Shown here one piece after another: positions 2,781 to 14,108 of a stretch of 14,350 nucleotides of DNA. This stretch comes from Pseudomonadota bacterium. Its GTDB lineage: Bacteria; UBA10199; 2-02-FULL-44-16; JBDRGF01. Both the position numbers and the translations under genes were made by a program. The stretch is taken from contig JBDRGF010000092.1 in the NCBI GenBank assembly GCA_043818055.1, positions 1 through 14,350 on the forward strand, given 5' to 3'. A model generated the notes under the pieces. The model did not search any database, was not told the origin of the DNA, and worked only from the letters and a program-made list of their open reading frames with translations. Positions within the stretch are counted from its first letter, which is position 1; each line of letters opens with the position of its first letter.

Positions 2781-3131
2781 ATGAGGATACTGCAGGATGT
2801 GGAATATGTCTCCGTAGCTGAAGCGAAGGCGAAGCTGTCAGAGAAGATCAGGCGCGTAATAGAATCTGGTAGGAGGTTTGTCATCACCTCCCATGGTAAA
2901 CCTCAGGCGGTTTTGATCGATTATAAAGAATATATTTCTCTGATCGAACCTGCAGAAGAGGGGCAACAAATCGACTCTCTTGAAGAGTGGCAGGGGCGCA
3001 AAAAGGAGAGAGGGAAAATAATAGAGAGTATAAGTTCTTTATTCGATGAATCAAAACTGTCCAAAAAGGGACAGAAGGAGTACAAAACAGGTGAAGTTAA
3101 AAAAATATCAAAAGTTAAAAAACGCGCTTAA
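2781..3131 (+). CDS. Phd/YefM-family antitoxin with charged C-terminal extension
   Basis: VSVAEAKAKLSEKIRRV..FVITSHGKPQAVLIDYKEY is a typical Phd/YefM DNA-binding domain. Strong RBS. Confidence 0.9.
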   Translation: MRILQDVEYVSVAEAKAKLSEKIRRVIESGRRFVITSHGKPQAVLIDYKEYISLIEPAEEGQQIDSLEEWQGRKKERGKIIESISSLFDESKLSKKGQKEYKTGEVKKISKVKKRA

Positions 3132-3723
3132 GAAGGCAATAAAGGAAGCCGATCTGGGGATTCGCGGCGTTAAAATAGCGTCAGTGATCGCGGAGGCTCT
3201 TCATGAGATAGATATCGATCCGGTACTGGTTGGCGGTGCGGCAGTTGCCTTTTATTCTGATGGACGATATGTCACAGAAGATATCGATATGCTGGCACCA
3301 TCCGGACCCGATGTTCAGGAGGTCATGGAGGAACTCGGTTTTTCGCGGTTTGGCAAAGACTATATCAATAAAGAGCTTAACATCTATGTGGAGTTTCCCG
3401 GGAGTTCATTGGGACCGACTGAACGTGCGATTGTGATAAAGGTGGGAGATGTCGATCTCAAAATTGTGTCGATTGAGGACCTGATAATAGATCGTCTGAA
3501 TGCCTTCAAATATTGGAAATCCGCCGTCGACGGTGTCAATGCGTTGAACATGCTGGAGCTTGGAATCGGTGATGAAGGGCGCATTATCAATCGTGCGCGA
3601 GAGGATGATGTACTAGATGCTCTGGATTATATTCGGGGCGTGCTTCGGAAGGTGATAAGGCAAAAAATAAATCCCCAGTTAGCAAGTGAATTGCTGATGG
3701 CTTATTTCAAAAAACAACCATGA
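3091..3723 (+). CDS. Nucleotidyltransferase, AbiEii/DUF6036-like (putative toxin)
   Basis: VLVGGAAVAFYSDGRYVTEDIDM matches the GG..(R)xTxDxD Pol-beta-superfamily motif; SIEDLIIDRL helix follows. Likely start is GTG 3091 after AAGGAG (3075-3080), overlapping the Phd gene by 41 nt. Confidence 0.8.
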   Translation: MKLKKYQKLKNALKKAIKEADLGIRGVKIASVIAEALHEIDIDPVLVGGAAVAFYSDGRYVTEDIDMLAPSGPDVQEVMEELGFSRFGKDYINKELNIYVEFPGSSLGPTERAIVIKVGDVDLKIVSIEDLIIDRLNAFKYWKSAVDGVNALNMLELGIGDEGRIINRAREDDVLDALDYIRGVLRKVIRQKINPQLASELLMAYFKKQP

Positions 3724-11192: not shown

Positions 11193-11648
11193 ATGAGCGT
11201 TAAAATTATCTGCAAAAATAAAAAGGCCCTTTTCAAGTTTGCGATCTCAGAGCGGATCGAAGCTGGGATAGTCCTGCACGGCCCTGAGATCAAGAGCATC
11301 AGGGATGGTAATGCCAACCTCTCCGACGCCTACGCTATCATGAAGGGTGGCGAGGCCTACCTGATAAACCTTCATATCAGCCCATATCAAGCGGCCTCCT
11401 ACATGAATCAGGAACCCAAAAGGGAGCGAAAGCTTCTCATGCACAAAAAGGAGATCGAAAAGCTAGCAGGAAAGCTAGACACCAAGGGCTTAACGCTCGT
11501 CCCTGTCTCGCTCTATTTTAAAAACGGCCGTGTAAAGGTCGAACTGGGCCTGGGGAAGGGAAAGAAGTTGTACGACAAACGAGCAACAATAGAAAAACGC
11601 GATTCAGACCGAAAGCTCAGACGAATGGTGAAACATAAACAGAGATAA
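11193..11648 (+). CDS. smpB: SsrA-binding protein SmpB
   Basis: NKKA.F, EAGIVLHGPEIKSIR, RERKLLMHKKEI, GKGKKLYDKR. Adjacent to tmRNA. Confidence 0.98.
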   Translation: MSVKIICKNKKALFKFAISERIEAGIVLHGPEIKSIRDGNANLSDAYAIMKGGEAYLINLHISPYQAASYMNQEPKRERKLLMHKKEIEKLAGKLDTKGLTLVPVSLYFKNGRVKVELGLGKGKKLYDKRATIEKRDSDRKLRRMVKHKQR

Positions 11649-11808
11649 AAATGCTAAATCCCAAATTACAAGCATCAAATAACAAATAAATTCCAAATCT
11701 CAAATTCGAAAAATAACTGATTAAACATTGATATTTACGATTTATCTGCTATTTGGTGGTTGGTTTTTGAAATTTGTTTGTAATTTGTTTTTTGAAAATT
11801 GGAATTTT
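11649..11808. repeat. Inverted pair of degenerate heptamer tandem arrays (consensus AAATYNC / GNRATTT)
   Basis: AAATGCT AAATCCC AAATTAC AAGCATC AAATAAC (AAAT) AAATTCC AAATCTC AAATTCG (11649-11708), followed by a T/G-rich mirror array (ATTTGGT GGTTGGT TTTTGAA ATTTGTT ... TTGGAATTT) to 11808. Confidence 0.8.
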
Positions 11809-11833
11809 CCCGATGCTTTTGCATCGGGTTTTT
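11809..11833 (+). terminator. Terminator-like hairpin abutting the 5' end of tmRNA
   Basis: CCCGATGC-TTTT-GCATCGGG (perfect 8-bp stem) followed by TTTTT. Confidence 0.55.
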
Positions 11834-12186
11834 GGGGGCGAAATAGATTTCGACGGGGATATGTCACAGCATAAGTGGCGCGTCGACCTCTCAGTAAGTC
11901 GTTAAACTATTGGGGAAACCATAAATGCAGAACCATTAGCATTAGCTGCTTAATTAAAAGCAGCACGTCAACCGGCCGACACCTGTTAAGTCGAATTGAC
12001 GTCAATTAGCAGGTTAGCTTCTCCAAGTTTGCTTTAGCGCGGAGCGGCGAAACTCATTAAAGCTGGCTCGAAGCGAATCCTGTTCCTGGGAGTTGTCAAG
12101 AGCGAGACTCAAATTCAGGAAATACACGCGTAGAAGCTTATGTTGTATATCTTCGGACCCGGGTGCGATTCCCGGCGCCTCCACCA
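11834..12186 (+). ncRNA. ssrA: tmRNA (one-piece, 353 nt), encoded tag AEPLALAA*
   Basis: 5' GGGGGCGAAATAGATTTCGACGGGG and 3' CCGGGTGCGATTCCCGGCGCCTCCACCA. The acceptor stem has the G3-U alanine determinant and an encoded CCA. Tag frame ATAAAT|GCA GAA CCA TTA GCA TTA GCT GCT TAA (11927-11953). Lies next to smpB. Confidence 0.97.
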
Positions 12187-12294
12187 GCCTTCGCTCCGAA
12201 TGAAATGAGGAGCGAAGGCTGCCGCGCCGAAGCTTAATAGCGAAGGCGGGCTAACCAGTTACAACAAACAAATGAGCTACGGCTCGGCAGGCCA
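12185..12294. repeat. GC-rich structured inverted-repeat element immediately 3' of ssrA
   Basis: Perfect 13-bp IR 12185-12197 / 12209-12221. A second IR, 12219-12234 / 12275-12290, matches at 14 of 16. AGCGAAGGC occurs twice (12211, 12239). Confidence 0.7.
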
Positions 12295-12406
12295 CTTAAA
12301 ATGCGATTTTATCCACTTTACAACCAATATGAAAATTCACATATATCTTTTCAAGTACTAAATCTGATGTATAATAGAGACTGATAAGTTTTTAAGAGGT
12401 GCGAAA

Positions 12407-13138
12407 TTGAATAATAAAAAGCTAAAAAAACCACCGATAATAGAAGCAATAATAGGGATTGCTTTAAGCAAACCTATATATTCACTAGAAACACTCGAAT
12501 CTCTTTATAAGTCTAATTTCTCAGATATTTTTGCTAAAAAAGAAACCCGGAAGAATTTTATAGCTCATATTGATATAAACACTAATGCTTTTAAATCTGA
12601 TGGTAGAGAAATGGGTTTAAAACTAAGCACTGACCCAAAGGACTTAACCCTATTCTTGGAGATAAATAGATTATCTCTAAGCAAACTTGCCCCATATGAA
12701 AGCGGAGAAAGTCTGTTAAAACAATATAAAGGTTTTTGGAATACTTATATAGAAAAATATGAGGGTGAAATTAATATTCAGGATATTGCCTCTCGTTCCA
12801 TTAATAGATTTGTCCTTCCAATTGATAAATTAGGTCTCTTTGCAATTAAGCCGGTAATGCTTAGTGAAAATCTTATTCTTTTTGGTAACTATGCCGGTCA
12901 ATATATAATAATTTCCTCACGGTTTAACGCAAAGGCTATAATAAATGTAAATATTAAACCGCTGGAAAATAAAAAAGTTGAAATAACTTTTGATATTGAT
13001 GCTCACAATGTAATCAATGTTAAATATAATAACTTTGAATCTGATATTGAATCCATATTTATGAGATTAAGAGAGTTTAAAAATGATATTTTCTTCTCTA
13101 ATTTACCAAAAGCTAACATAATGGAGGAGTTTCAATAA
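12407..13138 (+). CDS. TIGR04255-like uncharacterised protein
   Basis: N-terminal LKKPPIIEAIIGI, central L.PY and IASRSINRF (family R-Y-I-N-like), C-terminal FDIDA..LREFKNDIFF. TTG start with AGAGGTG RBS. Family call by motif recall. Confidence 0.75.
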   Translation: MNNKKLKKPPIIEAIIGIALSKPIYSLETLESLYKSNFSDIFAKKETRKNFIAHIDINTNAFKSDGREMGLKLSTDPKDLTLFLEINRLSLSKLAPYESGESLLKQYKGFWNTYIEKYEGEINIQDIASRSINRFVLPIDKLGLFAIKPVMLSENLILFGNYAGQYIIISSRFNAKAIINVNIKPLENKKVEITFDIDAHNVINVKYNNFESDIESIFMRLREFKNDIFFSNLPKANIMEEFQ

Positions 13139-13665
13139 TGGCAACTGCAATAGCCTTAGACATGTCACTTCCTAAAAATCATCCTCCACCTATATTTGAT
13201 TGTAAAGCATGTTTTAGATCTGAGGAGTCGACTTCCCGTGATAATAAGGTATTGGTGTTCCCGAAGACAACATCTATCGATGAAACTCCTAAACAGACAG
13301 CTATATCTGCAAGTGAAAATTTTGATGAAGAGTTAAAATATATTATTAATAATTGTTTAGTAGCAAATTGGGATAATGAAGGCGCAGCTTCAATTTCAGA
13401 AAAATCCATCAAATATGCGATAGACTTTATTGGATTATTGCCCAATACAATTTCACTACCTGAGCTAGTCCCTGAGCCAAGTGGGGAGCTTGCTATGGTT
13501 TGGTGGAAAAATGGCTTTCATCTAGCCTTAGGAATAGACAATGATAGTAATGCTGCATACGGTGCAACAACACCTAGTAAAGGAAAAATTTTTGGTGACT
13601 TTAAATTTAAATATGAAATTCCACTAGAATTAATACAACTACTAGAAAAAATAGAATCTGTTTAA
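13138..13665 (+). CDS. Conserved hypothetical protein (NWDxxGA..P..VPEPSGELAMVW motif)
   Basis: 175-aa ORF coupled through TAATG, with GGAGGAG RBS. Likely disordered N-terminal ~60 aa, then a compact alpha+beta domain. Confidence 0.75.
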   Translation: MATAIALDMSLPKNHPPPIFDCKACFRSEESTSRDNKVLVFPKTTSIDETPKQTAISASENFDEELKYIINNCLVANWDNEGAASISEKSIKYAIDFIGLLPNTISLPELVPEPSGELAMVWWKNGFHLALGIDNDSNAAYGATTPSKGKIFGDFKFKYEIPLELIQLLEKIESV

Positions 13666-13667
13666 TC

Positions 13668-14108
13668 ATGTTCAATTTTTTAAAAAAATTATTTATCAAA
13701 GAAAAACCAGCCGAGAAAAATGAGATTGTCGCTAGATTTATAGCTGAAAAATCTAAGTATAAAAGAGAAAAAAAATGTTTAACGCATAGCGCTTTTATAC
13801 CTCCTAAAAATTCTAAAGAAATTTCGGTGTGCTGTATTTTAGACATTATTAAATCTCCTCAAAAGATTTGGGATATTGCTGTAAAATATGTCAGTTCAAA
13901 AATTTTAGGAAGAGGTGATTTGTCAGTGGAAAAAATTAAAGAAATTAAAAGTGATAGTAAATCTCTATCAGTGCTAATCAACGGATCTCCACACAAAAGA
14001 CATGCAAATATTAAAGGATTTCCTGCCCCTTCTGAGAGATCAAAAGTTAAAGCTATAGCCATTAGTCTATCGGATATTTCTACTTTAGTTTTGCGTAATA
14101 GTGAATAA
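13668..14108 (+). CDS. Hypothetical protein with ADP-ribosyltransferase-fold-like motifs (putative toxin/effector)
   Basis: Starts 2 nt after the previous stop. Motifs IVARFI, SAFIPP, EISVC, GRGDL and RHANI. The fold assignment is inference. Confidence 0.6.
   Translation: MFNFLKKLFIKEKPAEKNEIVARFIAEKSKYKREKKCLTHSAFIPPKNSKEISVCCILDIIKSPQKIWDIAVKYVSSKILGRGDLSVEKIKEIKSDSKSLSVLINGSPHKRHANIKGFPAPSERSKVKAIAISLSDISTLVLRNSE

Follow-up and report, generated by a model that had tools for sequence, protein, structure and literature searches.

What is the three-gene cassette that lies directly behind the tmRNA gene in a Pseudomonadota genome (GTDB phylum UBA10199), and does it belong to a system that already has a name? 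We addressed this question on contig JBDRGF010000092.1, a stretch of 14,350 nucleotides (the window) that makes up one entire contig of a genome with 93.6% completeness. The cassette consists of three genes:

12407..13138, + strand: gene 1, a divergent TIGR04255 protein of 243 amino acids with a TTG start, proposed guard or sensor (profile search and structure model).
13138..13665, + strand: gene 2, a protein of 175 amino acids, proposed antitoxin (open reading frame and family alignment).
13668..14108, + strand: gene 3, an ADP-ribosyltransferase (ART)-fold protein of 146 amino acids, proposed toxin (structure model and family alignment).

The cassette is real, conserved, widespread and mobile. 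By analogy with known systems, we tentatively read it as a mobile three-part toxin–antitoxin (TA) cassette, resembling the toxin–antitoxin–chaperone (TAC) systems with different parts and reversed order, and most likely serving abortive anti-phage defence; as a whole mechanism, this falls slightly short of an even chance. An anti-phage role as such appears fairly likely from the sequence comparisons, and the cassette probably represents a novel type of switch in anti-phage suicide systems.

The tight coupling of three co-oriented open reading frames (ORFs) described in the initial annotation is present in the sequence, with a TAATG overlap at 13138 and a 2-nt gap between genes 2 and 3. An AGAGGTG lies 7 nt ahead of the TTG of gene 1, and GGAGGAG precedes the ATG of gene 2. 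The annotation's hand counts of 16/60 and 34/60 G+C were both exact; operon G+C is 31.0%, compared with 43.3% for the genome, in which 4 of 3,195 segments of 1.7 kb are equally low or lower.

To define a set of relatives, we scanned with the peptide PHPRHANI and retained 44 loci from genomes together with the 80 best of 120 from metagenomes (n = 124), a set that leans to one subfamily and includes near-duplicates. Co-occurrence of the three genes was upheld, the order TIGR04255–gene 2–ART gene being found in every trio seen. Gene 2 stood directly 5′ of gene 3 in 118/124 loci, and the first slot was occupied by a TIGR04255-type gene in 56, by a second family (A) in 37, by a third (B) in 13 and by unassigned genes in 12 (11 at contig edges). 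Among 401 genomes drawn evenly from another, large phylum, TIGR04255 gave 36 matches in 32 genomes, gene 2 gave 16 matches and gene 3 was found at 13 loci; complete trios occupied 9 of these 13, including all 8 strong ones. In the phylum of the window itself, gene 3 occurred in 1/93 genomes and TIGR04255 in 3/93. All parts are under purifying selection (ratio of nonsynonymous to synonymous substitution rates, 0.19–0.49), and gene 3 is split in 3/124 loci and in one sampled genome. G+C fell below that of the flanks in 67 of the 68 loci with enough flanking sequence (mean 7.7 points), which supports the proposal that the cassette is horizontally acquired; no relatives of gene 2 or gene 3 were found in the plasmids, phages and viral contigs searched. 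Cassette pieces were found identical in DNA runs of three studies, and one of these studies may be the origin of the sequence. In one RNA run, identical contigs covered parts of genes 1 and 2 and none covered gene 3; depth was 3.6–7 over those parts versus about 800 for the tmRNA, and DNA carry-over is possible.

Searches with the single sequences of the three proteins gave no Pfam or PHROG match of note, word-indexed searches returned one relative for each, a language-model atlas held unnamed clusters only, and profiles of the three genes had no sequence match in PDB. Structure was more informative for gene 3. Its predicted ART fold was supported by a model (pLDDT, the predicted local distance difference test score, 93.8) with a six-strand split beta core (strands at residues 20–25, 51–56, 81–86, 101–104, 112–116 and 139–142). 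R23, S53 and H112 are conserved and lie on model strands 1, 2 and 5, with His where ART enzymes usually have Glu. The first 41 rows of a wide structure search are what we take to be ART-fold proteins, the best matches being KptA/Tpt1; with Foldseek alone, neither PDB nor the viral models yielded a match at E ≤ 0.001, and 0/147 family members had a Pfam match at E < 0.01. Gene 3 is quite likely to be toxic, and it would, if this reading holds, add to the ART superfamily a clade in which His replaces the catalytic Glu. At its start (13668–13700), the gene encodes a short leader rich in Phe, Leu and Lys, which may form an amphipathic helix and is seen in about one third of aligned relatives.

The KptA/Tpt1 matches also invite a different reading, in which gene 3 would be a KptA-kind repair or antidote enzyme that cleans RNA ends or reverses a modification, with gene 1 or gene 2 as the effector. 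Such a role would suit the two loci at which gene 3 stands alone, without gene 2 (L027 and L075). However, KptA is a repair enzyme with a second lobe, and only its ART lobe (chain residues 86–180) aligns to gene 3, not the RNA-binding lobe; the third slot holds a MazF/PemK toxin at L203; and three loci carry the gene 2–gene 3 pair without a first gene. We consider this explanation improbable.

Gene 2 has a variable N-terminal tail (approximately residues 1–59) followed by a conserved C-domain that reaches the C terminus, with conserved positions W78 and D79, P114-x-G116 and W122; its atlas model is modest (pLDDT 0.69). It is a likely antitoxin. The assignment of gene 1 to TIGR04255, a curated family without assigned function, stands at 51 bits against a curated cut-off of 30 (residues 5–231), with E13, R130, D196, K225–N226 and F229 conserved. 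Its model (pLDDT 89.6) shows an alpha/beta sheet of two beta-alpha-beta(4)-alpha-like repeats within 243 residues, and fold searches placed it nearest to guanido-kinase, KA1 and TBP folds. The suggestion of a SecB-like chaperone was not supported: there was no Pfam SecB match and SecB was absent among the fold matches listed, a remote link being possible. Given these nearest folds and the lack of a SecB match, ‘chaperone’ applies to gene 1 by analogy only. At one locus (L121, 3306–4499), the TIGR04255-type first gene encodes 397 amino acids, about 150 of which form an additional N-terminal part.

How gene 1 and gene 2 might communicate is suggested by the tail of gene 2. Among 100 distinct proteins, tail length was 36–94 amino acids (median 48) with TIGR04255, 107–128 with family A and 73–79 with family B. 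In pairs such as L074 and L055, the gene-2 domain (61% identity) and gene 3 (50%) are kept while the first genes are unalignable. A partnership between tail and first gene predicts both the tie of tail length to first-gene family and pairs of the latter type. Several points limit this reading: DNA adjacency alone gives the same pattern, tails that share a first-gene type have little sequence similarity, and repeated first-gene swaps were not proved by trees built from 29 selected rows. Repeated swapping was itself rejected as a conclusion, because the trees need 3–4 changes but approximately unbiased (AU) tests are compatible with one origin (p-AU 0.37 and 0.14). That gene 1 acts through the gene-2 tail is, on these comparisons, an evenly balanced proposition.

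In the mechanism that we propose, gene 3 would be an ART-fold toxin that uses NAD+, with His at the position of Glu in classic R-S-E enzymes; its most likely activity would be to attach ADP-ribose to nucleic acid (at RNA ends or on bases) or to waste NAD+. Gene 2 would bind and silence this toxin through its folded C-domain, and the TIGR04255 protein would hold the variable N-terminal tail of gene 2, so that the antitoxin stays stable or in position. Once gene 1 is bound by a phage protein or signal, the tail would be freed, the antitoxin would be lost and the toxin would stop the infected cell. This proposal draws on computed features: the gene order is fixed, gene 3 has the ART fold with conserved triad-like residues, all parts are under purifying selection, the base composition is foreign, the second and third genes behind TIGR04255 can be exchanged, and tail length is tied to first-gene family. 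The same TA core could also be switched differently, with gene 1 as an enzyme or small-molecule sensor that either modifies the antitoxin tail, for example by phosphorylating or ligating it, or acts on binding a nucleotide signal; we think this unlikely.

TIGR04255 heads other pairs, one of them (L203) with a third-slot MazF/PemK toxin by Pfam. We compared wider regions around 32 of the 36 matches to TIGR04255 and around 8 matches to gene 2, two being without an anchor. In 32 of 35 first-gene anchors (the 32 and L002–L004), two co-oriented genes follow directly; TIGR04255 nearly always heads a two-gene pair. The second genes belong to several groups that are unrelated to one another, and in many of them a long leader precedes a helix-turn-helix (HTH), helical or gene-2-type domain. 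Pfam named 1/13 third genes scanned; other third-gene groups, read from motifs, appear PemK-like, papain-like and divergent ART-like. TIGR04255 heads a modular family of apparent antitoxin–toxin pairs.

A bolder extension is possible, and we regard it as doubtful: TIGR04255 might define an undescribed, widespread three-part TA defence class, in which a non-SecB, TBP/KA1-like saddle would be a general phage sensor that licenses interchangeable toxins. The saddle would grip the N-terminal tail of unrelated antitoxins, and the toxins would include R-S-H ART, MazF/PemK-like, papain-like and metallo-beta-lactamase nuclease types. The class would have arrived at the TAC principle independently and in mirror image, and the R-S-H ART would be a new clade of enzymes that target RNA or NAD. 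If the mechanism proposed above holds, TIGR04255 would be a marker with which to harvest many new toxin families, and guard-controlled antitoxins would have arisen without SecB. At this locus, TIGR04255 gains a testable role, and the whole cassette is cheap to test because it spans 1.7 kb.

Separately, two unnamed first-slot families (about 238 and 219 amino acids; L007, 4530–5246, and L012, 3984–4643) replace TIGR04255, mostly in Desulfobacterota-labelled and metagenome contigs, and no profile library names them. When families A and B were compared with the TIGR04255 model, 0/10 matched, and HHalign gave 35% and 0.5%. Plasmids of Thermus and Crinalium strains in culture also carry TIGR04255 cassettes (L238, 4007–5309, and L004, 3983–5813), offering culturable hosts for the wider family; the L238 cassette adjoins VapBC, a methylase and cas6.

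Three further features lie upstream of the cassette:

11834..12186, + strand: tmRNA (ssrA) with tag peptide AEPLALAA, a host gene 220 bp 5′ of the cassette (ARAGORN).
12187..12300, no strand assigned: spacer with a short hairpin-rich repeat, directly 3′ of the tmRNA CCA (blastn against the genome).
12348..12375, + strand: possible sigma-70 promoter, TTTTCA-16-TATAAT (promoter scan; taken alone, no better than chance).

Gene 1 starts 220 bp past the tmRNA CCA, as first described, but ssrA did not emerge as a special site: a tmRNA lay nearby at one more of 164 loci (L110, more than 3 kb away). Site-specific integration at ssrA was rejected, the window holding no integrase and the genome no second tmRNA 3′ end; in four read runs, no read joint bypassed the cassette. 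Any island's right border is outside view because the contig stops at 14350, 242 bp after gene 3. A tRNA gene lay within 500 bp in 14 of the 124 loci selected by motif, 9 of them in a single Nitrospirales lineage, and in 6/40 wider regions. In the nearest ORFs of 37 loci, scanned with no background control, restriction, TA, Cas or abortive infection (Abi) genes were present in 15. By our own grouping, the other 22 comprised an HTH and M78 pair in 2, transposase, Rep or capsid genes in 3, ambiguous cases in 2 and housekeeping or unannotated genes in 15.

A selfish addiction or stress-response TA cassette with no anti-phage role would fit the sporadic distribution in the window's own phylum, the low G+C, the positions beside tRNA genes and between housekeeping genes, and the two copies in one genome. 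Yet this locus has no replicon or integrase to stabilise, relatives adjoin restriction, Cas or Abi genes in the 15 of 37 loci above, and a related pair is seen embedded in defence systems. Conflict systems typically swap their effectors while the first gene stays constant, and we count this against addiction, which we judge a rather unlikely account.

Several individual loci deserve mention. Two divergent complete trios (L211 and L212, G401:C6) lie about 195 kb apart in one 2.1-Mb genome. An HTH and M78 (IrrE-like) peptidase pair stands directly upstream of the trio at L023 (1092–2221) and L024 (3759–4696), a layout that we take to be the regulator layout seen ahead of other defence operons. 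The divergent trio at L223 (3192–7341) has a phage capsid gene about 1 kb away on the opposite strand and is probably prophage cargo.

Elsewhere in the window, the reported TATAAT at 12370 is present, but the promoter is not above chance, because a scan found 13 promoter-like sites versus 9.7 ± 3.5 in shuffles. The spacer repeat has copies on contigs C126 (97% over 72 nt) and C141 (85% over 110 nt) of the same genome; it was rejected as an att duplication, the tmRNA 3′ end having no second copy in the assembly. Between ssrA and ORF 11193–11648, which is presumably smpB-like, an imperfect palindrome (11649–11833) has many partial genome copies (31 blastn pieces) and many loose-ended contigs in reads, pointing to a dispersed repeat element. 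At 2781–3723, a Phd/YefM antitoxin gene overlaps a DUF6036/DUF2204 nucleotidyltransferase gene, a second, unusual TA-like pair. An HTH fused to a minimal nucleotidyltransferase (Polbeta), MNT-antitoxin-like, lies at 1494–2054 (− strand), and ORF 125–472, upstream of it, has no Pfam match.

Whether the cassette is undescribed has a divided answer. A full-text literature search, with most subscription papers and bioRxiv supplements (including PDC tables S3–8) outside it, held no account of this cassette and no mention of TIGR04255, and the accessible parts of PMC13092281, PMC13069673, bioRxiv 10.64898/2026.10.19.760177 and PMC9503650 describe no such cassette. Window genes 2 and 3 are named by no PADLOC, PHROG or NCBIfam model, but gene 2 reaches E 0.0076 against PDC-M32A (gene 3 gives no match), and the families of both genes match the two PDC-M32 profiles. 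PDC-M32 is a two-gene PADLOC phage defence candidate for which the accessible text of bioRxiv 10.1101/2024.01.29.577857 and PMC12429752 reports no test; M32 is unnamed in the accessible main text of the former. In the gene-2 family, 56/83 members match PDC-M32A at profile positions of about 250–365 of 375 (best 5e-6, divergent members to 8e-10), the gene-2 C-domain being related to the C-terminal third of PDC-M32A; 43/147 gene-3 family members match PDC-M32B (best 3.6e-7). The likeness is remote, with scores of 12–36 bits versus E 1e-153 for a true member. The PDC-M32A protein, at 375 amino acids, is about 200–250 longer, whereas gene 2 (175 amino acids) covers profile positions 268–337 only. 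Sizes would fit PDC-M32A as a gene 1–gene 2 fusion, yet 0/40 gene-1-type and 0/29 first-slot proteins match its N-terminal part; no full-length PDC-M32A member was found in the 5, 301, 75 and 221 genomes searched. PDC-M32 may nevertheless gain a mechanism from this cassette, that of an ART-fold toxin and its antitoxin.

Among ART-fold proteins, Tse2 serves as a secreted antibacterial effector and has a dedicated immunity protein. Gene 3 shares 3–10% identity with KptA/Tpt1 and Tse2 (structures 9ldi/9ld3, 7yw2 and 5ako). An intracellular ART-fold toxin behind an antitoxin gene is a likeness to the two-gene TA systems RES-Xre, ParST, MbcTA and DarTG. The closest parallel in logic is with CmdTAC (PD-T4-9) and other TAC systems (PMC11618068; bioRxiv 10.1101/2024.02.24.581848), with which the cassette shares three tightly coupled genes, an ART-fold component (here the third) as presumed toxin, a long variable tail of the middle protein that faces the extra gene, and an extra gene common to different TA pairs. 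The parts differ: the order is extra gene–antitoxin–toxin rather than toxin–antitoxin–chaperone, and no PADLOC profile of CmdTAC or other TAC systems matched the cassette proteins. According to the accessible parts of these sources, CmdT has an H-Y-[E/D/Q] motif of the diphtheria type (PMC11618068), in contrast to R-S-H in gene 3; CmdA has two helices and a disordered C-tail ending in LAA, whereas gene 2 combines an N-terminal tail with a folded C-domain, and AA is a rare ending in its family (2/125 members); and CmdC is a SecB protein, whereas gene 1 is a two-repeat protein with no SecB match. The TAC family includes CmdTAC, HigBAC and MqsRAC; the disordered C-terminal ChAD element of its antitoxins is absent from gene 2, whose C terminus is the conserved domain. 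By this comparison, the cassette most likely works like TAC without being a member of the TAC family.
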